Sequence record: OR644643.1
DNA length: 64,000 nucleotides
From: Klebsiella phage NU-KP11
Direction: 5' to 3' (one strand)
Positions 52,540 to 64,000 of this stretch are shown here, one piece after another; position 1 is the stretch's first letter, and each line of letters opens with the position of its first letter. The notes beneath the pieces were generated by a model. It was not told the origin of the DNA. It saw only the letters and a program-made list of their open reading frames with translations, and did not search any database. The translations under genes and the position numbers were made by a program.

Positions 52540-54792
52540 TCAAATCTTACAACCCGCGCAATCTTCGGCGGCTTCTTCTTCATCACCAGCACCATCACGC
52601 GTATTATGATAGTACAGAGTTTTAACACCGTAGTAGTTAGCATACAGCAGATCATCAATGATGTCTTCTGTTTTAACTTTCCCGTCTTCATAGTTTGCCG
52701 GGTCATAATTGGTGTTTGCAGAAATAGACTGATCGACAAACTTCTGCATAACTGCTACATGAGACAGATACCCTTTGTTACCGCGTTTAGCCATATCCCA
52801 GAGCAGATCATAGAAATCAATCTGGTTATTCTGGTTAGGCACAACCTGGTTATAGTGTCCTTCTTTCGAAGATTTGATACTCACTAAACCGCGCGGAGGT
52901 TCGATCCCGTTGGTAGAGTTACTAACCTGTGAACTACTTTCACAAGGCATTAAAGCAGAAAGAGTAGAGTTGCGCAAGCCGTATTTCTTAATCTGACTAC
53001 GTAACCATTCCCAATCGCAATTATAAACAGGTGCTACCAGTTCATCAACGGTTTTGCAATACCAATCGATAGGCAGTAACCCGCGAGCGTATTTGGTATC
53101 GTTGTACAATCCACATGCACCACGTTCTTTCGCCAGTTCCATAGAAGCAACGAGAAGGTTAAACTGAAACGCTTCCATTAGCTCATGAACTTTGTCTGTA
53201 TACGCTTCTGAGTAGTCGCAATAGTTGCTCGCTAACCATGATGCATAGTTGGTGATACCAACACCCAGAGAACGGCGCTGTTTAGCTTTCAGAGCGGCTT
53301 TTACAGGGTAGTTCTGGTAATCCAGCAGGTTATCAAGCGCACGTACTGCAATACGCGTGAGTTTCGGGAATTCGCTGATATCAGCGTTATCCAGAACGAT
53401 AGCCATTAGCGTACACAATCCGATTTCACCAGCCATTTTATCATCGTCATCCAGCGGCGACGTTGGGATCGCAATCTCACAACACAGGTTAGACATACGA
53501 ACAGGAACCGTAAAACTACCCTGTTGGTTGACGTGATGAGTGTTGAAAATGTATTTGCGTCCTGTCTGTGCGCGTTCCTGTGCTAACAGTTGGAACAGGT
53601 CAACCGCTTTGATGCGTTTCTTACGAACAGTTGGATCTTTTTCCAGGCTTTCATACAGTTCTTCAAATGCAGTCTGATCAGCTTCATAGAACAGATCATA
53701 CAGACGATCGTTAGCAACATCCGGACTAAACAGCGTAATGTAATCACGATTCATTAAGCGTTTATACATCAACTGGTTAAGCTGTACACCATAATCAATA
53801 TGACGAACGCGGTTTTCTTCTACACCTTTGTTGTTCTTCAACACCAGAAGGTTTTCAACTTCCAGATGCCAGAAAGGATAATACAATGTTGCAGCACCAC
53901 CACGAACGCCACCCTGTGAACAGGATTTAACAGCGGTTTGGATATGTTTCCAGAAAGGAATCACACCAGTATGAACAGCTTCACCACCACGGATTTTAGA
54001 ACCCATTGCGCGAATATGTCCCGCGTTAACCCCAATACCAGCACGTTGTGAAATATACTTCACGATCGCAGAGGTTACAGCGTTAAGAGAACCAAGAGAA
54101 TCACCCGATTCAATTACTACACAACTGGAGAACTGGCGCGTAGGAGTACGTACACCCGCCATAATTGGAGTTGGTAGAGACAGTTTGCGATCGGAAATTG
54201 CGTTATAAAAATCAACGATATGCGTAACCTGTGCTAATCCAGTTTCTTCCTGATGCAGACACATCGCAATAAGCATAAACGCATACTGAGGGGTTTCAAA
54301 GATTTCGCCAGTATCGCGATCCTGAACCAGATATTTCCCGATTAACTGTTGGGAACCAGCATACGAAAATTCAAAATCCTTATCATGATCAATTGCACGT
54401 TCGAAAACTTGAATATCTTGCTTGCTGTATTTTTCCAGGATCTCTTTATCGTATTTCCCCGCTTCAACCATTTTAACGATGTGATCGTAGAACGGGATAG
54501 GATCGAACTGACCGTAAACGTCTTTACGCAATGCAAACATTTCAAGATTCGATGCTACGTATTGCCAATCCGGTTCTTTAACAGAAATATGATCTGCTGC
54601 ATACTTGATAGCGATACGTTGAATTTGTTTGGTAGTCATACCATCGCGTATCAGTTCTAATACATTTTCAAGGAATGCACGAACATCGATATTATGACCA
54701 TCACAGGCCCACTTGAGCACTTTGTATATTTTTTCTTTGTCAAACGGCTGGCGTACACCAGAGGATTTTACTACTACTTTAATGTCATTCAT
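52540..54792 (-). CDS. nrdA: ribonucleotide reductase large subunit
   Basis: Colinear with E. coli NrdA incl. C-terminal ...GCESGACKI-like tail. Confidence 0.9.
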   Translation of the reverse strand: MNDIKVVVKSSGVRQPFDKEKIYKVLKWACDGHNIDVRAFLENVLELIRDGMTTKQIQRIAIKYAADHISVKEPDWQYVASNLEMFALRKDVYGQFDPIPFYDHIVKMVEAGKYDKEILEKYSKQDIQVFERAIDHDKDFEFSYAGSQQLIGKYLVQDRDTGEIFETPQYAFMLIAMCLHQEETGLAQVTHIVDFYNAISDRKLSLPTPIMAGVRTPTRQFSSCVVIESGDSLGSLNAVTSAIVKYISQRAGIGVNAGHIRAMGSKIRGGEAVHTGVIPFWKHIQTAVKSCSQGGVRGGAATLYYPFWHLEVENLLVLKNNKGVEENRVRHIDYGVQLNQLMYKRLMNRDYITLFSPDVANDRLYDLFYEADQTAFEELYESLEKDPTVRKKRIKAVDLFQLLAQERAQTGRKYIFNTHHVNQQGSFTVPVRMSNLCCEIAIPTSPLDDDDKMAGEIGLCTLMAIVLDNADISEFPKLTRIAVRALDNLLDYQNYPVKAALKAKQRRSLGVGITNYASWLASNYCDYSEAYTDKVHELMEAFQFNLLVASMELAKERGACGLYNDTKYARGLLPIDWYCKTVDELVAPVYNCDWEWLRSQIKKYGLRNSTLSALMPCESSSQVSNSTNGIEPPRGLVSIKSSKEGHYNQVVPNQNNQIDFYDLLWDMAKRGNKGYLSHVAVMQKFVDQSISANTNYDPANYEDGKVKTEDIIDDLLYANYYGVKTLYYHNTRDGAGDEEEAAEDCAGCKI

Positions 54793-54799
54793 TCTCTTA

Positions 54800-54828
54800 C
54801 CTTGTTAAGAAAGGGGCCGAAGCCCCAT
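54800..54828 (-). terminator. intercistronic hairpin GGGGCTTCGGCCCC + T-run between td and nrdA
   Basis: hairpin then SD AAGGTAAGAGA. Confidence 0.5.
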
Positions 54829-54831
54829 TTT

Positions 54832-55707
54832 TCATACTGCCATTTCAGCTTTTAGAGAGCCGTGATTATGATACCCTTCTAAGGTTATCGAGTCAAAGAA
54901 TTCTTGATCTAAATCAAGTAAGCTATTTACCTTCGGCATTTTTAGAATCGGTAATGGCATTGGTGAACGGTTAGGCTGTAAAAGTTCTTTTGCCTGTTCA
55001 ACCGCATTTTTATAGATATGGACATCACCACCAGTCCAAACCAGATCGCCCACTTCGTACCCGCAAATATCAGCGATAATATGCGTCAGGAGAGCATAGG
55101 AGGCGATATTGAACGGCAACCCTAAGAAGACATCAACTGAACGCTGATACCACTGTAGAGACAGTTTACCGTTGATTACAACGAACTGGAAGAAACAGTG
55201 ACACGGACGCAACGCCATATCATCAAGATCAACAGGGTTCCAGGCAGAAACGATGATCCCGCGATCGTCTGGGGTTGATTTCAGTTGTTCAATGACTTTT
55301 GCGATCTGATCAACACCACTACCGCCATAATAACTATCATCATCCCCATAAAGAGAACCAAATGAACGCCATTGATGACCATAGATTGGCCCCAGATAAC
55401 CATCTTCATAGCCTAAATCAATAGCTTGTTTCTCATAGTTATCGTCCCAGATCGTGCGCTTATCGCTATTTTCACCCCAGGTCATCCGGCGAAGTTCTTC
55501 GACATTAGTCGAACCGGACAGGAACCATTGCAATTCATGCTTGCACGGCTTGAAGAACAGTTTTTTACAGGTAGTTGCGGGGAAACCTCTGTTTAGATCC
55601 CATCGGGCTTGTGCGCCGAAAATACGAATAGTACCTACACCAGTGCGATCGGTTGATTCAACACCGTTATCAAGTACAAGTTTAATAATATCCAGATACT
55701 GTTTCAT
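54832..55707 (-). CDS. td: thymidylate synthase
   Basis: ThyA motifs (RPCHCFFQF, 291 aa), no intron. Confidence 0.85.
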   Translation of the reverse strand: MKQYLDIIKLVLDNGVESTDRTGVGTIRIFGAQARWDLNRGFPATTCKKLFFKPCKHELQWFLSGSTNVEELRRMTWGENSDKRTIWDDNYEKQAIDLGYEDGYLGPIYGHQWRSFGSLYGDDDSYYGGSGVDQIAKVIEQLKSTPDDRGIIVSAWNPVDLDDMALRPCHCFFQFVVINGKLSLQWYQRSVDVFLGLPFNIASYALLTHIIADICGYEVGDLVWTGGDVHIYKNAVEQAKELLQPNRSPMPLPILKMPKVNSLLDLDQEFFDSITLEGYHNHGSLKAEMAV

Positions 55708-55708
55708 T

Positions 55709-56299
55709 TTATACCTTTTTATATCGATCGACTACGATTTTTTCAATGCGTTCATGTTCTTTGATGTACTGAGTTTTGAAATCAGTAAATTCATATTTTA
55801 ACAATGCATCACCCAATTCAGAAGCAGTAAACGAAACATCGCGTTTAAATGCTGGGGCATTATATACATGATGTCCGTAAATGTGCGTCAAAACTACTTC
55901 ATCAACCATTTTATTATTGATTGAATCTAAAAGCAACCCCTTACCACCGATGACACATACATTTTTATCTGGGTGTGTTGCTTGCATTGTACCAATAGCA
56001 GCAGACAACCCGCCACCGTGGATCACATAATCAGCAACCTCTCCTTTTTTGGTTTTCAAAAAACTACCGGAACCAGACAGAACACAATGGATCCTACCAG
56101 GTAGTTTACCCGGAAGAGAGATAAACGTATTTGCACCCATGATCAAAACGCTATCGGCGGTTTCTTCTTTGAAGTTCTGTAAATCTTCTTTACAGTGGCC
56201 CCACGGCAAGCCTTGCTGATATCCAAAAGCGAAATCATCGTGGTAGATATCATGCCCCAGCGCAAACACCGCTTTTACTATGCTCATATTGCGATCCAC
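55709..56299 (-). CDS. frd: dihydrofolate reductase
   Basis: GLPWG...DLQNFK...IMGANTF; upstream of td as in T4. Confidence 0.75.
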   Translation of the reverse strand: MDRNMSIVKAVFALGHDIYHDDFAFGYQQGLPWGHCKEDLQNFKEETADSVLIMGANTFISLPGKLPGRIHCVLSGSGSFLKTKKGEVADYVIHGGGLSAAIGTMQATHPDKNVCVIGGKGLLLDSINNKMVDEVVLTHIYGHHVYNAPAFKRDVSFTASELGDALLKYEFTDFKTQYIKEHERIEKIVVDRYKKV

Positions 56300-56541
56300 A
56301 TTTTGTTGTCTTCAACAGTTACAATATAGCCTAATGCTTCAATCATAACTTTCAGTTTTTCTTTGTACTTCTCATCATACCCGCGAATCTTCTCGAATTC
56401 AACAGAGAAAATACTACACCCCTGATATTTTGCATTGATCACGCGAGATTCAATATCAAAAATCATGATATCCAGAGGACACCAATCAACAGAGTGAAGT
56501 TTTTCGCGGGTTAGTAGTGTTGTGTTCTTAGGGAGTTTCAT
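56284..56541 (-). CDS. hypothetical protein (85 aa)
   Basis: ORF track. Confidence 0.45.
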   Translation of the reverse strand: MKLPKNTTLLTREKLHSVDWCPLDIMIFDIESRVINAKYQGCSIFSVEFEKIRGYDEKYKEKLKVMIEALGYIVTVEDNKMWIAI

Positions 56542-56768
56542 TCCGTTTCCTGTTCATTCAGCCATGATTCGATACGAGATAGTTCTTCATCTCGCGGGGT
56601 AAATCCATATGATGCGTCGATCATCCCAATCTGATCCCAAACATCAATTTCCAGGATCTCAGTCACTGGAGGATTTTGTGAGATATGGTCGCGACATACA
56701 GCAAGAGCGGTATTGATGGATTGTGTGACAGTCAGAGTGTCACCCTGTACAGATACTTGAATAATCAT
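56538..56768 (-). CDS. hypothetical protein (76 aa)
   Basis: ORF track. Confidence 0.45.
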   Translation of the reverse strand: MIIQVSVQGDTLTVTQSINTALAVCRDHISQNPPVTEILEIDVWDQIGMIDASYGFTPRDEELSRIESWLNEQETE

Positions 56769-57055
56769 TCAGAACTCCATGCATTTTTCAAAGTAAATCT
56801 TTGTTGGGAATTAATAATCGTAGCGCGAATAACAGCAAGTTTCATTTCTTCAAATTTATTTCGCGTCATATACAAACCAATCAAAGGAAAATAGAGCCTT
56901 TCCCATTTGTAAGTGTCGCTTACTTCTTTAACAGCATTGATTAAAATCTCAGCCATTTGAAAATCGGTAGGAGGAACCCAACCAAGATTAATATAAATCC
57001 GTTTTTGTGTACCTTCTTTCAGATTTTCCAAACGTAACCATGTTGGACAACTCAT
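56765..57055 (-). CDS. hypothetical protein (~96 aa; MSCPTWLRL...)
   Basis: track ORF 56765..57100 trimmed: its first 15 codons are a terminator hairpin. Confidence 0.45.
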   Translation of the reverse strand: MSCPTWLRLENLKEGTQKRIYINLGWVPPTDFQMAEILINAVKEVSDTYKWERLYFPLIGLYMTRNKFEEMKLAVIRATIINSQQRFTLKNAWSSE

Positions 57056-57065
57056 AATATTTTCC

Positions 57066-57100
57066 TCAAATAAAAAGGGAACTGCGTTAACAGTTCCCAT
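57066..57100 (-). terminator. terminator GGGAACTGTTAACGCAGTTCCC + T5 (after J-domain gene)
   Basis: hairpin + T-run, followed by SD GAGGAAAATATT ATG. Confidence 0.6.
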
Positions 57101-57114
57101 TATAGTTCATTTGA

Positions 57115-58824
57115 TTAGTAAGTCAAGCGCCACAATTGAATTGCTGCATCAACTTCCTTCTTGATATCTTCCGGAGTGTCTTTGCGCTGTGCTTTGACTA
57201 ACATAGTCATCATTTTACGAATAGTGTTGTTCATATTCGCTTTCTCACGTGCTGCATGAACAGCCTGTGATTTTTCCACTTCCGGTGTATCTTTCTTAGC
57301 CGCCTGTGGTTTGGTAGGCTGTGCGCCGATTTCGTCTTTCTGTTTAGGTGCTTTTTGCTCTGCTTCCTTCTTCACATGAGGCGCGGAGAATTTACCCGCT
57401 TTGAAGTTAGAATTCATTTGATCTAAAGCGCTCTTAACAGTGTTCCAGTCAGAGATCCCGCGTAAAGATTTCAGAGTATCAGTGAGCAGGCTAATGCTTG
57501 CGCCTTTGGTATCTTCTGCGATATCGATTCCTTTCAACCACTCAATGTGTTTCTGACCAGAGTACGTGAAATTAAAGCTACTGAATGAGTAGTATGCTTT
57601 ACGGTTTACAACAATACGCTTGAAGTTGATAGTAACACCAGCGCCGTTATCAAATTCAACATAACCGCTGGTAGGCATTACACGAGCACCAATATCTTTT
57701 AGTGCTGCGAAGTATTCCTCTTTACCGATACGATTAACAGTGCGTTTTGGCTTCTCTTCTGGTTTTGGTGCGGCTTCCTGAGCAGCTACACGTTTAACAA
57801 AAGATGCTGAACGATGTCCCGCCGCAAACTCTGCGTTCATCTTATCGATCGCGTTCACAACTCCTTGAACACTCGGTTTCAGTTTCTGCAACTCTTTGAA
57901 CGTATCAACGATCATATCCAGGCAAGCGCCGTCCTCATCTTCGAACATTGTTCCGCGAAGTTGTGCAGCCGGACGATACTTAGATACAGCAGGATCATAC
58001 ACCGCGCTAAACACATAAGCACCTTTGCGCATGAATACGTGACGATAGAAACGAACTTTCAGTGTACCAACTTCAACAAAGATATCGTTTCCGCTAATGT
58101 CAGCGCCTAACAGCTTACGGAATGATGCCAGGTAATCAGCACGTTTGTACTTGATATTTTTCTGTACAGGGCTGAAAATGCTTTCCAGTTTTTTAGACGG
58201 GAACAGGCTTTCCGGAGTGATCTTATCTGGGTTTTTGCCCCATTGATAATCACGGCTTGCCATTTTATGTTTTTTAGTTCCAACCAGTACAAAGGTACTA
58301 ACAGAAACGCTACCCAGTGCAGATGAATCCGGAGCGGCTAACCCTTGTCCATTCGGAGGGGTGCAGTTGAAACCGAAATCAAAGTAAGCATCACCAGAAG
58401 TGAAACGGAACGAAGCATAAACACCGTGACTACCTTTTGTTACTTCCTGTTTGAAAGTGGTAGGCAATCCAGTGTATTTGGTGAAGTATTCCGCAAATTC
58501 CTGTGCGTTAAATTTGGTGCTGAAATAGTTTTTCGCCACTACAAAGTAAGCATCAACTTTTTCTTCCCATTCTTTCTTTTGACGTGCATAACGTGCGCGA
58601 ACGTCACCAGCAGTCTCAGAACGTGCGCCACTAGGCCCAGTTTTTGTAACGACGTCGTAAGCCTGGTTAATTTTCTGCATTAATTCATTGCTACCACCAC
58701 GGTCGGGGTGATTGCGTAAGGATGCACGTTTGAAGAGTCTGGACATTTCGGCGCTGGTTTCGCTACCAGTTGCGCCCAAAACTTTCAGTGCTTCCTGATA
58801 AGTCATTTTGGATTCGGTGATCAT
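57115..58824 (-). CDS. J-domain (DnaJ N-terminal, HPD motif) protein with two internally duplicated ~120-aa domains (569 aa)
   Basis: YQEALKVLG...LFKRASLRNHPDRGG; two ~120-aa segments each ending in a shared Q/MN..F.AG..SA..VK motif. Confidence 0.6.
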   Translation of the reverse strand: MITESKMTYQEALKVLGATGSETSAEMSRLFKRASLRNHPDRGGSNELMQKINQAYDVVTKTGPSGARSETAGDVRARYARQKKEWEEKVDAYFVVAKNYFSTKFNAQEFAEYFTKYTGLPTTFKQEVTKGSHGVYASFRFTSGDAYFDFGFNCTPPNGQGLAAPDSSALGSVSVSTFVLVGTKKHKMASRDYQWGKNPDKITPESLFPSKKLESIFSPVQKNIKYKRADYLASFRKLLGADISGNDIFVEVGTLKVRFYRHVFMRKGAYVFSAVYDPAVSKYRPAAQLRGTMFEDEDGACLDMIVDTFKELQKLKPSVQGVVNAIDKMNAEFAAGHRSASFVKRVAAQEAAPKPEEKPKRTVNRIGKEEYFAALKDIGARVMPTSGYVEFDNGAGVTINFKRIVVNRKAYYSFSSFNFTYSGQKHIEWLKGIDIAEDTKGASISLLTDTLKSLRGISDWNTVKSALDQMNSNFKAGKFSAPHVKKEAEQKAPKQKDEIGAQPTKPQAAKKDTPEVEKSQAVHAAREKANMNNTIRKMMTMLVKAQRKDTPEDIKKEVDAAIQLWRLTY

Positions 58825-58835
58825 TTATTGTTCCT

Positions 58836-58875
58836 CAAATAAAAACAAAGCCCACGTTTCGTTACATGGGCTACT
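58836..58875 (-). terminator. terminator AGCCCATGTAACGAAACGTGGGCT + T-run upstream of J-domain gene
   Basis: hairpin + TTGTTTTT. Confidence 0.55.
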
Positions 58876-58897
58876 TTACTGTATTTATGGATTTCGG

Positions 58898-59089
58898 TCA
58901 ATAGATTTTTTCGAGGAACCAAACAGAACTTTTGTTGTTCTTGATTCGCGTCAACTCTATAGGATTATTTTTGAATGCTTCCTCAACATCTTTCATAGTA
59001 ACTATATGTTTTTCTTCAAGAAAATTGTTGTGGAGATAAAACCGCTCTATTTCCGGAGCGGTTTCTAATTCAAATTCTCTTTCTAACAT
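58898..59089 (-). CDS. hypothetical protein (63 aa)
   Basis: ORF track. Confidence 0.45.
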   Translation of the reverse strand: MLEREFELETAPEIERFYLHNNFLEEKHIVTMKDVEEAFKNNPIELTRIKNNKSSVWFLEKIY

Positions 59090-60789
59090 TATGCACCTCG
59101 ATCATTGATAGTACACTTTGTGAACCGTCCAACTTTCTGCATGGTGATATGTCGGTCGAAATCTTGCGGATCCAGATCCTGATGACTGATAATGATAGTG
59201 TTTCCTTCAATGCTGTCAAGTAAAGTTTTGATTGCATATGAACCTTCTCGGTCAAGTGGCCCGTCAAAAACTTCATCCAGGATCAGAAGGGATAAATCAA
59301 CACCAGAAATTTTACTGGTTACATCGCGCCAGGTGAACAATAAAGCAAGGTTAATACGTGCTCTTTCGCCTTGACTGAACGATGCGTAACTAAAATCATT
59401 ACGACCCAGCGATTTAATAGATTCGTTAAATTCGTCATCCAGAGTGAACTGATAATCAGCACCCAACAGATCCAGATAGTACGCAATCTGTTTATTGAAG
59501 TAAGGAATATAACGTTTAACGATGCTCGCTTTAACGCCGGAATCTTTCAGCAGATCCGTAACAATACCTCTGAAATATTTTTCCTTGACAAATCCGGAAC
59601 GTTTAGAATCAAGTTCCTTTTCATCTTCACGGAGTTTTTCAACTGGGGATTCATCGATCACCACGTCTTCCTGTGCTTTATCCATGACAGCCCGAACACG
59701 TTTAGCCGCTGCAACTTCATTTTGAAGTGTACCGCGTAGTGATTCGTATTTGGATTTCAGCCCATTTAGTGTACGTTGTTGTGTTAGTAAATCATCCATG
59801 ATTTTCTGTAGCTGATCTTGTTTGTTCTTAATCAGCGTAAGTTTCTGAGTACCGTTTTTAATATTCTCGGCAATCTCTTCCATGCGTTCAGGAGTGGGGC
59901 TAATTGGCTGTTTACAGGCCGGACATTCACCACCCTTGCGATACATCACCTCAAGACGCTGCAACTGTTCTACGTTCATTGAGAGGCGTGTATAGCCATC
60001 ACGCAGTTTTTGAATATTTGCTGTTTGGTCTTCACCATTGATCACACATTCTGCGATCTGGGTTTGAAGTTCAACTAATTGCGCTTTAATCTGTTTTGCT
60101 GTTTCTACGTGGGAATCGTAGATATCCTGGTAACGCGCCGTATTCTGATTTGCTTTTGCCCGTTGTTCGTCAATGAACTTTTGATGTGTTGCGATCTGCT
60201 GTTGTACGTGTCCAATCTGCATTGAAAGCGTATCCAGTTCACGGTTAACACCACGGATGTATGATTTGTTCAGTTTGTCCATTTCACTGATGATAGACAA
60301 AGACAACAAATCTTCAACCAGTTTACGGCGATCTGGTGTTTTCAGTTCCATGAAAGGTACATAACCAGCAGTACCCAGAACGATAACCTGTTTAAAGCCC
60401 ACCAGGTTAATATTCAACATTGATTCAAGCTGTGACTGATAATCACCAGCGGCTGAATCTTCCGGCAGTTTTTCGCCATTCTTCCAGATCTCAAATACTT
60501 TCGGCTTTTGTCCACGGATGATTTTATATTCATCATTGCCGTATTCGATCAACAGTTCAACCAGACATTTTTTCTTGTTGATACTGTTCACCAGTTGCCC
60601 GACTTTCAGATCGCGAAATGACTTACCAAAGAGAGCATATGTAAGCGCTTCGATCATGGTGGATTTACCACCGCCGTTTTTACCCGTAATGAGGGTTTTC
60701 TTTGCTGAATCAAAATCAATGACGATCGGTACGTTACCAACCGACAAGATATTTTGATAAGTCAATGTTTTAAATTTGAGTTTCATCAA
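59089..60789 (-). CDS. 46: recombination endonuclease ATPase subunit (SbcC/Rad50-like, T4 gp46)
   Basis: Walker A GKNGGGKST, long coiled coil, CxxC zinc hook, C-terminal D-loop/LILDE. Confidence 0.85.
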   Translation of the reverse strand: MMKLKFKTLTYQNILSVGNVPIVIDFDSAKKTLITGKNGGGKSTMIEALTYALFGKSFRDLKVGQLVNSINKKKCLVELLIEYGNDEYKIIRGQKPKVFEIWKNGEKLPEDSAAGDYQSQLESMLNINLVGFKQVIVLGTAGYVPFMELKTPDRRKLVEDLLSLSIISEMDKLNKSYIRGVNRELDTLSMQIGHVQQQIATHQKFIDEQRAKANQNTARYQDIYDSHVETAKQIKAQLVELQTQIAECVINGEDQTANIQKLRDGYTRLSMNVEQLQRLEVMYRKGGECPACKQPISPTPERMEEIAENIKNGTQKLTLIKNKQDQLQKIMDDLLTQQRTLNGLKSKYESLRGTLQNEVAAAKRVRAVMDKAQEDVVIDESPVEKLREDEKELDSKRSGFVKEKYFRGIVTDLLKDSGVKASIVKRYIPYFNKQIAYYLDLLGADYQFTLDDEFNESIKSLGRNDFSYASFSQGERARINLALLFTWRDVTSKISGVDLSLLILDEVFDGPLDREGSYAIKTLLDSIEGNTIIISHQDLDPQDFDRHITMQKVGRFTKCTINDRGA

Positions 60790-61084
60790 TTATCCTTTGG
60801 GATATATCACTAATCATGTTTGTAATCGTGCTATCAAAGCAGTATATCACGGAATCTTCATCCATGCTATTCAGGACAGTAAATGTCCAAACCTTTGTTT
60901 CGTGATAGTTGTCTTTAATCAAAGTGAACCCCAATGACACATACTCATTATGGGAATCCTGCTGTACTGCAACAATCACATCAAATCCAAACATTTTATA
61001 AAGGGCTTTATATCGCCCTTCTTCGTTTAAAATATTAACGTAATCAACTATTTCCATTGCTCGTAACCTCTGCATACAATGCAC
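60770..61084 (-). CDS. hypothetical protein (104 aa) between gp46 and gp47
   Basis: ORF track. Confidence 0.45.
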   Translation of the reverse strand: MHCMQRLRAMEIVDYVNILNEEGRYKALYKMFGFDVIVAVQQDSHNEYVSLGFTLIKDNYHETKVWTFTVLNSMDEDSVIYCFDSTITNMISDISQRIIDETQI

Positions 61085-62090
61085 TCATTATTGCAGATAC
61101 TTCGGTCTTTTCTTCTGGAGTGATCTGCATGTTGTTGATGTACTCACTAATCAATCCAGATACACTTTTGATTTCAAAATCAGTATCGACTTCTGAATCA
61201 GTGATCACGCGATCGACAATGTTCAATTCATAAACTGTTTCTTCCAGTTTTGTTTGAAACTTAGGCAAATCGTTATCAACTTCGCGTACAATCAAGCGAA
61301 CAGAGCAATTTTTGTAATCTGCAACATCAACATCTTTTTGATCCGGATAGGTGATCCGGCGATGGTGGCATACTGGGTTAGCAATGAAAGTTAATTCACG
61401 TTTACCGTCGCCATAAGATAGCTCATAGAAGCCCCTGGTTTCGTCCTCATCGTTCGCGCTCATGGTCAGAGGTGTACCGATATAGAAAACGTTAGCGCCT
61501 TCGTTAGCGTGATGATAGTGGCCTGAATACACGATATCATATTTCTTTAAGAAATCAGGTTCAAGCCCATGATCCGCTTTACTGTTCTTATAGAAATAGT
61601 ATCCGGACAGTTCAAAGTGTCCTAAGCAGTATTGAGATTTTGACTTTTTGATGAAATCAAAAATCTGTTGTGTGTTTTCTTGACAAATCCACGGGATCAA
61701 ATCGATTGATTGCAGCGGAGAAGTATCAAGATTTACTGTCATCGGTTCATCAACAACCGTGAAGCAATCATACTGATCAAGAATCTCTCGCGGTGAGTTA
61801 GGGCGGATCTTGTCTTTAAACTGGCAATCGTGGTTCCCAACCAGAACATAGATATGTAATCCGGCTTCTTCCAGTAGTGGCACAATACGTTCACGAATGA
61901 ATTTCATCGTGGTTTGTGTGGTGGCCTTGCGCACATCAAAGAAATCACCAGCATGGAAAGCCTCGGTAATGCCGTTTGCTTTGCAGTGTTCTACGATTTG
62001 TACGAATACATTGTATAGGTTTTCTTCATTCCAGGGGTTGTCCTGACGCAAGCCAGCGTGAGTATCCCCGATCATTAAGTACTTTCTCAT
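61044..62090 (-). CDS. 47: recombination endonuclease nuclease subunit (SbcD/Mre11-like, T4 gp47)
   Basis: phosphoesterase motifs MIGDTHAG, GNHD, GHYHH. Confidence 0.85.
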   Translation of the reverse strand: MRKYLMIGDTHAGLRQDNPWNEENLYNVFVQIVEHCKANGITEAFHAGDFFDVRKATTQTTMKFIRERIVPLLEEAGLHIYVLVGNHDCQFKDKIRPNSPREILDQYDCFTVVDEPMTVNLDTSPLQSIDLIPWICQENTQQIFDFIKKSKSQYCLGHFELSGYYFYKNSKADHGLEPDFLKKYDIVYSGHYHHANEGANVFYIGTPLTMSANDEDETRGFYELSYGDGKRELTFIANPVCHHRRITYPDQKDVDVADYKNCSVRLIVREVDNDLPKFQTKLEETVYELNIVDRVITDSEVDTDFEIKSVSGLISEYINNMQITPEEKTEVSAIMSALYAEVTSNGNS

Positions 62091-62126
62091 AAGACCCTCA
62101 TAGCCCCTTTCGGGGCTACTTGTTTG

Positions 62127-62453
62127 TTATTGCTTCTGTTGTGAAGCTACGATATTTCGAATTGATGCTAGTGAAGTGTTCCACATCGTATCAATGAAAT
62201 CCTCTGTATACGGCTGTTTGAGCATATCACGAAGTTTCTTAACCGCATACACATACTGAACTTTATTACCCCTGAATAGGGCTTCCTCTGCGTGTCTACG
62301 GAGGCGTTTGATCTCAGTCCGGTTCTTCTTAATGAATTTTTGTGCTCGCTTCAATGCATCGGCTTCTACACGTGCCTGGATCTTTTGTCGAATTTCCTCT
62401 TCTGGATCCACTTCTTCCACACTGGTTAGTACTTCTTTCTCTTCATCAATCAT
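62127..62453 (-). CDS. hypothetical protein (108 aa)
   Basis: ORF track. Confidence 0.45.
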   Translation of the reverse strand: MIDEEKEVLTSVEEVDPEEEIRQKIQARVEADALKRAQKFIKKNRTEIKRLRRHAEEALFRGNKVQYVYAVKKLRDMLKQPYTEDFIDTMWNTSLASIRNIVASQQKQ

Positions 62454-62661
62454 AAGTGATCTCCATGATCATAGTTTCGGCGTTTATCATATAAGACAAA
62501 ACCCCTTCTTCTACTTCGAAATCGGGGTTTCTTACGTCAGTTGGATCGATGATAACCGGGATTCCCACGTTTTGCAACTCTAATTTTACGAAGTAGGGTA
62601 GCAAGTCAATTTCGTAATCGATATCAGTTAATATTTTGTTTAAGTCAATTATTGCTTTCAT
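62446..62661 (-). CDS. hypothetical protein (71 aa)
   Basis: ORF track. Confidence 0.45.
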   Translation of the reverse strand: MKAIIDLNKILTDIDYEIDLLPYFVKLELQNVGIPVIIDPTDVRNPDFEVEEGVLSYMINAETMIMEITYD

Positions 62662-63185
62662 AGAAAATCTTCCAATGTTGGGAATACTTCCGCTTCCTTG
62701 TCTTTGGTTTTGGTGGCGGAAGCCTCGTACTGAGATAGTTTGTCATGTAGATCTTGAATGAAACCTTCGTCTGCAATACTAACCATATCTGAATCTTCGC
62801 AGTCGTAAACGTGCTCAAGGAAGAATTTATATTTCTTCGCGTTCTCTTTTTTCTCGTACAGAATACGTGTTACGAATGCTTGCCAACATGCTTTGTTAAT
62901 GTAACCGTAAACGTTGGTATAACGAGTTTCATCGAAGTTATGCAGTCCTGAGATTGCAGCGGAAATTCCGTCATCGATCATATCCATTTTCCAATCTTCG
63001 GAATAACGGTTGAAGTTGTAACGACGTGATAGCCCGTTTGCAATATCCATAATAGCAGCACCTAACTCATTAGGCATTTTGCGATCACCTGTTTCGGCGA
63101 TTTGCTTTTTCCATGCACAGAGGATAGGGTATAATTTTTCATTGTCTGCGTAGATATTGGTTGTTTCTTTAGTCATAGTATTCAT
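62658..63185 (-). CDS. 55: late-transcription sigma factor gp55
   Basis: Colinear with recalled T4 gp55 (GLSRRYNF..Y...WK..MI.DGI.A.I.GLHNFDET.Y.N...YI..AC..AFV.RI). Confidence 0.85.
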   Translation of the reverse strand: MNTMTKETTNIYADNEKLYPILCAWKKQIAETGDRKMPNELGAAIMDIANGLSRRYNFNRYSEDWKMDMIDDGISAAISGLHNFDETRYTNVYGYINKACWQAFVTRILYEKKENAKKYKFFLEHVYDCEDSDMVSIADEGFIQDLHDKLSQYEASATKTKDKEAEVFPTLEDFL

Positions 63186-63229
63186 ATTTCCTCTTTGAAG
63201 TTAAGAATATTATATAATAACTGTAGACA

Positions 63230-63420
63230 AAATCAAATTTCATTCTATATTATTTAAGGTTAAAGTAGATCTAATGATCTATAGATCAGATCTAAATTAT
63301 ATAAAATTTATTGATTTTAGTACTTGACCTACAATGATCATTGTAGTAAAATAATTATTAATTAATAAATTATAGATCATAAATTTGATCAGATCAAGTA
63401 TTATTGATCAAAATTTTTAT
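63230..63420. repeat. AT-rich intergenic region with ~9 GATC sites in palindromic arrangements (TAGATCTA, TACAATGATCATTGTA etc.)
   Basis: direct reading. Confidence 0.6.
63326..63360 (+). promoter_or_regulatory. sigma70-like promoter -35 TTGACC, 17 nt (containing palindrome TACAATGATCATTGTA), -10 TAAAAT
   Basis: hexamers. Confidence 0.45.
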
Positions 63421-63431
63421 GGTCTTTTGTA

Positions 63432-63465
63432 TTGACTTCATTTCGTAAGTTACTACAATAACCCC
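63432..63465 (+). promoter_or_regulatory. sigma70-like promoter -35 TTGACT, 16 nt, -10 TACAAT upstream of rnh
   Basis: hexamers. Confidence 0.5.
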
Positions 63466-63489
63466 GTTCTTTGAAAAATTGAGGTATGT

Positions 63490-64000
63490 ATGAGCAGTTT
63501 TGCAAGCATGTTTAACTTGAACAAGCTGATGCAAGATGAAGGGGAACCCGATGATACTATGGTCATCGATATCTCTAACATTTCCATCGCTACACTGATG
63601 AACAACTTCAAACCAAAGGAACAAGCATCCATCACGATCGAAATGATTCGTCATCTGGTGCTTGACACTTTACGGTTTAACGTTGTAAAATTTAAAGGTG
63701 AGTATCCAGAAATCGTGATTGCCTTCGATGACAGAAATTACTGGCGTAGGCAAAAAGCCTGGTACTACAAAAAACGTCGTCAGATCGAACACGAAGAATC
63801 AGAATGGGATTGGGATCGTCTGAACAACTTCCTGAATCCTGTGTTCGAAGAAATCCGTCAGAATATGCCTTATCTCGGATTAAAGGTTGAATTCGCGGAA
63901 GCTGATGATATAATTGCTGTTGTTACGAAAAAAGCTGTTGGTGAAGGTAGACGAGTATTAGTGGTTTCTGCTGATAGCGACTTTACACAACTACAGAAAT
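63490..64000 (+). CDS. rnh: RNase H / 5'-3' flap exonuclease (T4 rnh), 3'-truncated by window end
   Basis: Colinear with recalled T4 RNase H (D.S.I..ST..NF..KE.....M.RHL.L......VKK; YWRR..A.YYKK.R; EADD.IAV..KK; SSD.DFTQL). Confidence 0.8.
   Translation, partial: MSSFASMFNLNKLMQDEGEPDDTMVIDISNISIATLMNNFKPKEQASITIEMIRHLVLDTLRFNVVKFKGEYPEIVIAFDDRNYWRRQKAWYYKKRRQIEHEESEWDWDRLNNFLNPVFEEIRQNMPYLGLKVEFAEADDIIAVVTKKAVGEGRRVLVVSADSDFTQLQK

Follow-up and report, generated by a model that had tools for sequence, protein, structure and literature searches.

The divergent intergenic region between gp55 and rnh (63186..63489 of the window, i.e., of the whole 64,000-nucleotide stretch of Klebsiella phage NU-KP11, OR644643.1, analysed here) is 304 bp long, 78% A+T, and densely set with GATC sites. 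By sequence comparison, it is one of three paralogous GATC islands of the genome, which are referred to as S1 (the present region), S2, and S3. We propose, at somewhat less than even chances, that the islands are replication origins composed of promoters and unwinding elements, in which Dam-methylatable GATC sites would serve as a mark of replication state; this reading is drawn entirely from anatomy and analogy. The 1.4 kb around S1 are 99.4–99.9% identical to more than 100 Slopekvirus genomes of the Straboviridae (Klebsiella phages KP15, KP27, Matisse, and others), and the source phage is, by sequence, a Slopekvirus, that is, a KP15/KP27-like, T4-like Klebsiella phage. The gap itself is 100% identical in most of these records. 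A selection test by within-genus conservation is without power, as the more than 100 records are 99–100% identical.

Nine GATC sites start at positions 63268, 63276, 63284, 63289, 63336, 63375, 63387, 63392, and 63406, all within 142 bp (63268–63409). An earlier note, made from the sequence of the window, had described about 9 sites in 190 bp; the count stands, and the span is tighter. Shuffling the region yielded on average 0.57 GATC (mononucleotide shuffles) or 1.04 (dinucleotide-preserving shuffles) with a maximum of 6, and none of 20,000 shuffles contained 9, which places the enrichment at S1 at 8- to 15-fold. The local excess that the note had suspected is therefore present relative to A+T-matched shuffles. 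Across the window GATC is ordinary (410 observed versus 426 expected under a Markov model) and the next densest 200-bp stretch holds 5, so the density at S1 does lie far above that of the rest, as had been stated. The G+C content is 22% over the gap and 18% over its 161-bp core, where 9 of the 16 G and 9 of the 13 C belong to GATC. Four of the sites form a left array (63266..63295), which comprises TAGATCTA, the perfect 14-bp palindrome TGATCTATAGATCA (63275–63288), and AGATCTAA; a homologous block, GATCAGATCTAAA, is present in S2.

Genome-wide comparison was based on mtp7 (OX335407.1), a complete, unannotated relative of 177,726 bp in which the window end corresponds to position 58395. The three AT-richest 200-bp segments of mtp7 are located at 128.3 kb (S3, 90% A+T), 163.4 kb (S2, 86%), and 57.6 kb (S1, 82%), and the fourth reaches 73.5%. 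These three segments contain 4, 6, and 8 GATC, respectively, whereas the next nine AT-rich segments contain 0–1. Over the full gaps, the counts are 9 for S1, 10 for S2, and 5 for S3 versus 0.4–1.3 expected, and not one of these counts was attained in 5,000 shuffles. All other intergenic DNA of mtp7 holds 20 GATC versus 16.7 expected, and we thus rejected the idea that GATC is a general promoter ingredient. Pairwise local alignments of the three islands score 8–15 standard deviations above dinucleotide shuffles, which argues for their paralogy. S2 (mtp7 163266–163635, equal to L006:13266–13635) and S3 (mtp7 128227–128522, equal to L005:28227–28522) both lie outside the window. S2 is positioned between a conserved open reading frame (ORF) of 262 amino acids on the minus strand (ORF262) and a gp3-like tail protein gene on the plus strand, the latter followed by a gp1-like (dNMP kinase) ORF. 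On the minus strand, the end of a gp24-like capsid gene and uvsY enclose S3, which lies directly upstream of uvsY (UvsY Pfam E = 2e-37).

The three islands share a core of 72–74 bp (63324–63397 in the window) that consists of two face-to-face sigma70-like promoters. Its order is a -35 hexamer, 17 bp, and TAAAAT; an A/T-only centre of 14–16 bp resembling TTAATTAAT; ATTATA abutting GATCA; the rest of a 17-bp spacer; and a -35 reverse complement. A profile search of mtp7 with this core returned only four copies: a single one in S1, a tandem pair in S2, and a single inverted one in S3. In S1, the distal rightward promoter-like site TTGACC-17-TAAAAT (63324..63352, plus strand) and the distal leftward promoter-like site TTGATC-17-TATAAT (63369..63397, minus strand) face each other across the A/T-only centre AATTATTAATTAATAA (63353..63368), which core comparison places between the two -10 hexamers. 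The predicted rightward promoter carries GATC in its spacer, and the predicted leftward promoter carries three, in the -35 hexamer, in the spacer, and abutting the -10 hexamer. The rightward site, the convergent arrangement, the 11-mer ATTATAGATCA at the leftward site, and TGATCTATAAT, in which GATC abuts the -10 hexamer, are conserved in all four cores. Judging from the hexamer positions, transcription would start at ~63360 (rightward) and ~63362 (leftward), both within the A/T centre, and the two starts of a core would be 2–4 nt apart. If so, the two polymerases would exclude each other, and each transcript would cross the opposite promoter into GATC-bearing, A+T-rich DNA.

Two further promoter-like sites flank this pair in S1. 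The proximal gp55 site TTGATT-16-TATAAT (63209..63236, minus strand) and the proximal rnh site TTGACT-16-TACAAT (63432..63459, plus strand) both match the consensus and are annotated as promoters in the KP27 record, which lists four consensus promoters in the gap. At the UP-element position of the gp55 promoter lies the block TCTATATTATTTAA (63241..63254). The earlier note had recognised two consensus-like promoters; their presence is upheld, and their number was too low, since at least four sigma70-like sites are found, including the face-to-face pair. Each island contains 8–11 promoter-like matches, compared with 3–4 in shuffles. Among the cores, the TAAAAT promoter-like site faces rnh, gene 3, and uvsY, and the TGATCTATAAT site faces gp55 and ORF262. 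In S3, the TGATCTATAAT site is directed away from uvsY and reads into the 3' end of the gp24-like gene, where no ORF follows; it would give rise to an antisense transcript of that end.

The islands are also rich in dyad symmetry. The spacer of the TTGACC-17-TAAAAT site is filled by CTACAATGATCATTGTAG (63329–63346), a perfect 18-bp palindrome with GATC at its centre. This matches the earlier description of a perfect palindrome in that spacer, where the 16-mer given as the middle of three palindromes is perfect and extends by one base on each side; the first and third strings proved imperfect. The right-hand palindrome (63374..63425) pairs arms at 63376–63391 and 63405–63420 with 81% complementarity and includes the GATC sites at 63375, 63387, 63392, and 63406. 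The entire segment 63284–63395 forms a dyad that is 73% self-complementary. When folded as single-stranded DNA, 63255–63425 gives z = -4.1 relative to shuffles, and the three islands range from -3.1 to -4.1.

Comparison with the sister genus Pseudotevenvirus revealed different sequence at these three positions. RB43, RB16, GAP161, CfP1, and POP12 retain the gp55–rnh synteny, and the gap measures ~320 bp in all but POP12, where it is 258 bp. This gap aligns to that of Slopekvirus at the edges only, for example at TCTATATTATTTAA upstream of the gp55 promoter, which is identical in the orthologous gap. The Pseudotevenvirus-like phage ENT3 (PV358066.1) has a promoter at the position equivalent to the proximal gp55 site and TTGACT-16-TATAAT as the equivalent of the proximal rnh site. 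The five gaps hold 1–3 GATC (the element overall, 1–4), and instead of GATC arrays they have an A+T-rich centre flanked by GAGCGAAGCGAA and TTCGCTTCGCTC as inverted repeats; in POP12, a single GAGCGAAGCGAA block occurs, not an inverted pair. ENT3 contains a near-identical, dispersed palindromic repeat of 115 bp in exactly three copies, at the orthologous positions next to uvsY, gene 3, and rnh (L012:21960–22230, L013:5990–6260, and L014:26470–26740; also L007–L011 and L023–L028 in relatives). Both arms of the repeat bear GCGAAGC mini-hairpin motifs, inverted repeats are nested around TCTCTATATATAAAATATAAA, and the fold of the repeat reaches z = -5.1. It is flanked by outward promoters matching 11 of 12 consensus positions, one of which, at the uvsY island, is an orphan directed toward the end of the gp24-like gene, in the same position as in S3.

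Two more distant relatives, whose UvsY is 71–74% identical, keep the Pseudotevenvirus element upstream of uvsY, and in one of the two (L027) matching changes appear on both arms (GCGTAGC and GCTACGC). GCGNAGC has been reported as an extraordinarily stable DNA mini-hairpin motif that is frequent at phage replication initiation sites (PMC13037366). Like the Slopekvirus islands, the GCGAAGC repeat occupies the same three positions and combines outward promoters with an A+T-rich dyad. It differs from them in its low GATC content, in its mini-hairpin motifs, and in the core: no homology between the Slopekvirus core and the repeat was detectable, and the core profile search of ENT3 returned no copies. 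The conserved positions and layout, the replaced sequence, and the mutual likeness of the copies fit a class of cis-elements with a common mechanism. In the searchable literature, including the Slopekvirus, RB43, and RB16 papers, we found no published description of the islands, the shared core, or the Pseudotevenvirus repeat.

All Kp15-type phages have been reported to encode Dam and Dcm methylases (PMC5219037). In mtp7 we identified a D12-class adenine methyltransferase of 283 aa that has a DPPY motif, and ENT3 encodes a nearly identical enzyme; the same Dam-like enzyme occurs in both genera, and its presence was rejected as a discriminator between them. Given these genes, the island GATC sites are probably methylated. 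One record, CPRSB (OM971649.1, L054), which is error-rich and has many frameshifted genes, differs from the window at six island positions, all of them in GATC, so that 5 of the 9 sites are changed, mostly from GATC to GATT. Over 9.9 kb (54061–64000 of the window), 17 of its 158 substitutions fall in GATC versus 5.2 expected (P = 2e-5). These differences could be base-calling errors at modified sites or real changes, and as a sign of GATC modification they are only a hint. In another record, KMI7 (L052), a G>A change at 63422 creates a tenth GATC (63421–63424) and perfects the right dyad (AGATCA/TGATCT), and the GATC at 63392 is lost by G>A.

The origin reading would combine these features as follows. 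The islands are the most easily melted DNA of the genome as judged by composition (82–90% A+T over 200 bp), with strong dyad symmetry. Host RNA polymerase would start at the island promoters and transcribe over 100 bp of A+T-rich DNA, and the transcript would stay annealed as an R-loop and prime leading-strand synthesis, as at T4 oriF, oriG, and oriE. The dense GATC sites would be methylated by host Dam and by the phage-encoded Dam, full methylation would mark unreplicated parental DNA, and the first passage of a fork would leave them hemimethylated. This state may then be read by SeqA or by the promoters themselves, and renewed firing would be limited in the manner of oriC and P1 oriR. Early transcription of gp55 (leftward) and of rnh, dsbA, 33, and 59 (rightward) would be fed by these promoters as well. 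Such a scheme would account for the A+T extreme, the dyads, the promoters directed into A+T-rich DNA, and the orphan promoter in two genera, as well as for the three kept positions (one being that of T4 oriF), the mini-hairpins of the sister genus, and the clustering of GATC.

T4 supplies the closest parallel. In the T4 record, oriF lies at the 5' end of uvsY and the uvsY transcript is the primer RNA; oriG is within gene 34, at a distance of 2.2 kb from the rnh start, and oriE is within gene 5, at 3.4 kb from gene 3; each of these two uses a primer RNA antisense to the adjacent late gene. Thus, S3 occupies the uvsY-promoter position, as oriF does. T4 oriF and oriG are made up of a middle-mode promoter together with an A+T-rich unwinding element and act via an R-loop, oriE relies on an early promoter, and all three lie near points of transcription divergence and skew shift (PMC3016281). 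Correspondingly, the ~70 bp downstream of each distal promoter-like site are very A+T-rich, as an unwinding element would be. There are also differences. The gap upstream of uvsY measures 76 bp in T4 versus ~300 bp in Slopekvirus; the islands are paralogous repeats with a common core, whereas the T4 origins lack a common motif (PMC3016281); and oriF and oriG have MotA-dependent middle promoters, whereas S1 lacks a MotA box. Of the T4 origin types, only an early-promoter variant like oriE would fit the S1 promoters. The T4 origins were rejected as sequence homologues of the islands, with neither GATC clusters nor similarity.

The E. coli oriC offers a second parallel, with 11 GATC in ~250 bp where about one is expected (PMC11447400). 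In oriC and P1 oriR, as in the islands, GATC is many-fold over-represented in an A+T-rich unwinding region. Several island repeats begin with GATCT followed by A/T, like the oriC 13-mers. Both of these origins have initiator sites, whereas the Slopekvirus islands lack DnaA boxes, the IHF consensus, and initiator iterons, and an oriC-type, DnaA-dependent origin was rejected on the first two counts. T4-type phages replicate with their own replisome.

Phased GATC arrays also turned up elsewhere among viral sequences. A scan of IMG/VR for AGATC-N4-GATC-N4-GATCA (N = A or T) returned 20 loci, of which 2 belong to Slopekvirus and 7 to one family of contigs (L032, L033, L035, L038, L044, L046, and L050). 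In this family, the array lies between 3–4 iterons (TAGTCAAAATGAC) and an A/T tract (L032:5892–6231), inside a replication-initiator gene and just upstream of one for a DnaB-like helicase. This is the layout of a lambdoid-type origin, so such arrays are indeed present in some phage origins. The contigs share with Slopekvirus the same 8-bp-phased array directly beside an A/T tract, and differ in having iterons and an initiator gene, neither of which accompanies the islands. Two other viral contigs contain tandem GATC-bearing repeats of 8–9 bp (L049:5830–6033 and L048:4139–4212), one with five copies of GATCCTTA and a repeated GATCACGTATAATC, the other with about seven tandem units of the GATCAATA type at the contig end.

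Several observations weigh against the islands being origins. An exact positional match to a T4 origin exists only between S3 and oriF; the counterpart of S1, oriG, is 2.2 kb away and on the other side of rnh. The T4 origins hold 0–1 GATC each, with no GATC cluster and no common motif, so the GATC feature is specific to Slopekvirus. The TGCTT (MotA) box is absent from 63186–63489, and the T4 middle-promoter type of origin is not reproduced. IHF consensus sites are absent from the islands, as are DnaA boxes (TTWTNCACA, at most 1 mismatch) apart from one weak match to the box, and the only iterons are the GATC-bearing repeats. Although the two minima of cumulative GC skew in mtp7 coincide with or fall close to S1 and S2, which would favour origins, this signal is confounded with gene orientation. 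The promoter matches are consensus hits in AT-rich DNA, where such hits are common. The left array would be dispensable if the CPRSB changes are real mutations. Finally, most of the same anatomy is covered by a role in transcription control, discussed below.

The earlier note had listed three candidate functions without choosing among them, a Dam- or SeqA-sensitive promoter switch, an origin-like element, and a binding array for a regulator. The comparative evidence shifts weight to the first two, through the existence of three paralogous islands, the location of one of them at the T4 oriF site, and the placement of GATC within conserved promoter-like cores. We further consider, as a possible though doubtful extension of the origin reading, that Slopekvirus and Pseudotevenvirus share an unrecognised class of origins. 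It would be made up of three paralogous islands at uvsY, rnh, and gene 3, in which convergent early promoters melt the A/T centre and prime in both directions, with accessory motifs exchanged between the genera (GATC arrays versus GCGAAGC mini-hairpins). If this is true, the GATC arrays would tie origin firing to DNA methylation state in Slopekvirus, Dam-site clustering would acquire its first role in a T4-like phage, and the matter would be relevant to therapeutic Klebsiella phages grown on hosts that differ in methylation status. The lack of a common sequence motif has made the T4 origins difficult to define, and origins in other Straboviridae appear unmapped in the searchable literature. 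The islands provide three short, delimited, and mutually alike candidates with a 74-bp core whose sequence is swapped in the sister genus, which makes the question directly testable.

The strongest competitor, which we regard as rather unlikely yet worth serious attention, is that the islands are purely transcription-control hubs. Mutually exclusive, face-to-face early promoters would respond to Dam state or SeqA, and the flanking operons would be turned down after replication, with no origin role. S1 has four annotated or predicted sigma70-like sites, the convergent pair and TGATCTATAAT are kept in every core, three GATC lie in the leftward distal site, and Dam is supplied by host and phage alike, all of which speaks for such a hub. 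Dam-sensitive promoters with GATC in the core are established for IS10 pIN/pOUT, Tn5, and P1 cre. IS10 pIN/pOUT resembles the island pair in its face-to-face promoters and in having GATC in or beside the -10 element. The predicted transcript overlap is 2–4 nt in the islands versus 36 nt in IS10, and the island element, unlike IS10, forms part of a 300-bp island that has further GATC arrays, and it is present three times per genome. A hub also fits poorly with the S3 copy, which keeps a promoter that has no gene to express, as does ENT3, and with the other intergenic promoter regions, which are not enriched in GATC. It does not account for the islands' rank as the three AT-richest sites of the genome, nor for their replacement in the sister genus by GCGAAGC hairpin palindromes at the same positions.

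An improbable alternative is a binding array for a sequence-specific or AT-tract protein, such as a phage regulator or host H-NS, Fis, or SeqA, for which the GATC palindromes would be operator half-sites and by which the islands would be organised or silenced. Short GATC palindromes do recur across the three loci (TGATCTATAGATCA, AGATCT, and ATTATAGATCA, the last four times), and a motif set that is swapped while its positions are kept in the sister genus is the pattern expected of sites co-evolving with a trans-acting factor. An orientation-optimised alignment of 24 sites, however, yielded nothing informative beyond W-GATC-W. The 32 Slopekvirus ORFs without an ENT3 counterpart comprise homing endonucleases, small ORFs, and one DksA/TraR-type zinc finger, and among them we found no candidate for a Slopekvirus-specific GATC-binding or GATC-cutting protein. 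With no genus-specific trans-acting regulator found, the binding-array idea is weakened.

Less probable still, the islands might be recombination or shuffling cassettes or neutral AT-rich spacers without a dedicated function, similar to PeSLs (promoter-early stem-loop cassettes); the islands would then be dispersed repeats homogenised by gene conversion, with GATC sites that arose by slippage. The copies are more like each other than like their orthologues, the core is tandemly duplicated in S2, isolates differ by a 5-bp indel and by GATC gain and loss, and the islands are points at which assemblies break. As known repeated elements of T4-type phages that carry promoters, PeSLs resemble the islands as repeated, partly palindromic, sigma70-promoter-bearing intergenic elements (PMC2839356; PMC4122927). 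They are, however, many, short, and concentrated in hyperplastic regions (PMC4122927), and they are terminator-plus-promoter units, whereas the islands number three, are long and AT-rich, and contain convergent promoter pairs together with GATC arrays. The core occurs in 4 copies at 3 loci between core genes, and no terminator-like site was found in S1. The restriction to three loci between conserved core genes, with positions shared by at least two genera and by more distant relatives, counts against cassettes or neutral spacers, and slippage leaves unexplained why a single tetramer reaches 8–15 times its expectation at three loci.

A Dam-regulated packaging (pac) site, as in phage P1, where clustered TGATCA/G hexamers control terminase cleavage, is very improbable: TGATCA and TGATCT hexamers are clustered in two groups ~90 bp apart, which recalls P1 pac, but three copies per genome would be unexpected, Slopekvirus records start at many different positions, as expected of circular permutation, so that a fixed end at S1 is unlikely, and T4-type terminases use headful packaging from concatemers, with no unique pac site.

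Some deposited assemblies appear to be split at the islands. The records LC768470/77/93 (~140.9 kb) and LC768478 (35,069 bp) and the IMG/VR contigs L022 and L025, from Slopekvirus and Pseudotevenvirus, are pieces of ~141–144 kb and ~35 kb that end inside the uvsY and gene-3 islands; in mtp7, 35.1 kb separate these two islands. Split assemblies include those of phiKp_9, phiKp_15, and phiKp_23, with contigs ending at S2 and S3. The islands thus seem to break genome assemblies. The first 38 nucleotides of the 142-kb contig L022 (L022:1–38) match neither mtp7 nor ENT3 and join the uvsY island abruptly at ATCAATTTAAATTTGACT, which suggests a chimeric contig end.

Within the gap, no known RNA family was found in Rfam, and the small ORFs that some records annotate there look spurious, none being plausible. 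One of them, a 34-aa hypothetical protein annotated in some records (e.g., Squirrel_ER27) at 63401–63505 on the minus strand, spans the rnh promoter and start codon and looks like a spurious call in AT-rich DNA. The left flank is the gp55 late sigma factor gene (62658..63185, minus strand), as supported by its ORF and by the KP27 and Matisse annotation. The right flank is rnh (RNase H / 5'-3' exonuclease; 63490..64000, plus strand), which is annotated likewise, runs off the window end, and matches Pfam 5_3_exonuc_N with E = 1e-12. The annotation and this 5'-3' exonuclease domain agree with the names given to both flanks in the earlier note. Downstream of rnh, KP27 and Matisse carry dsbA, 33, and 59.

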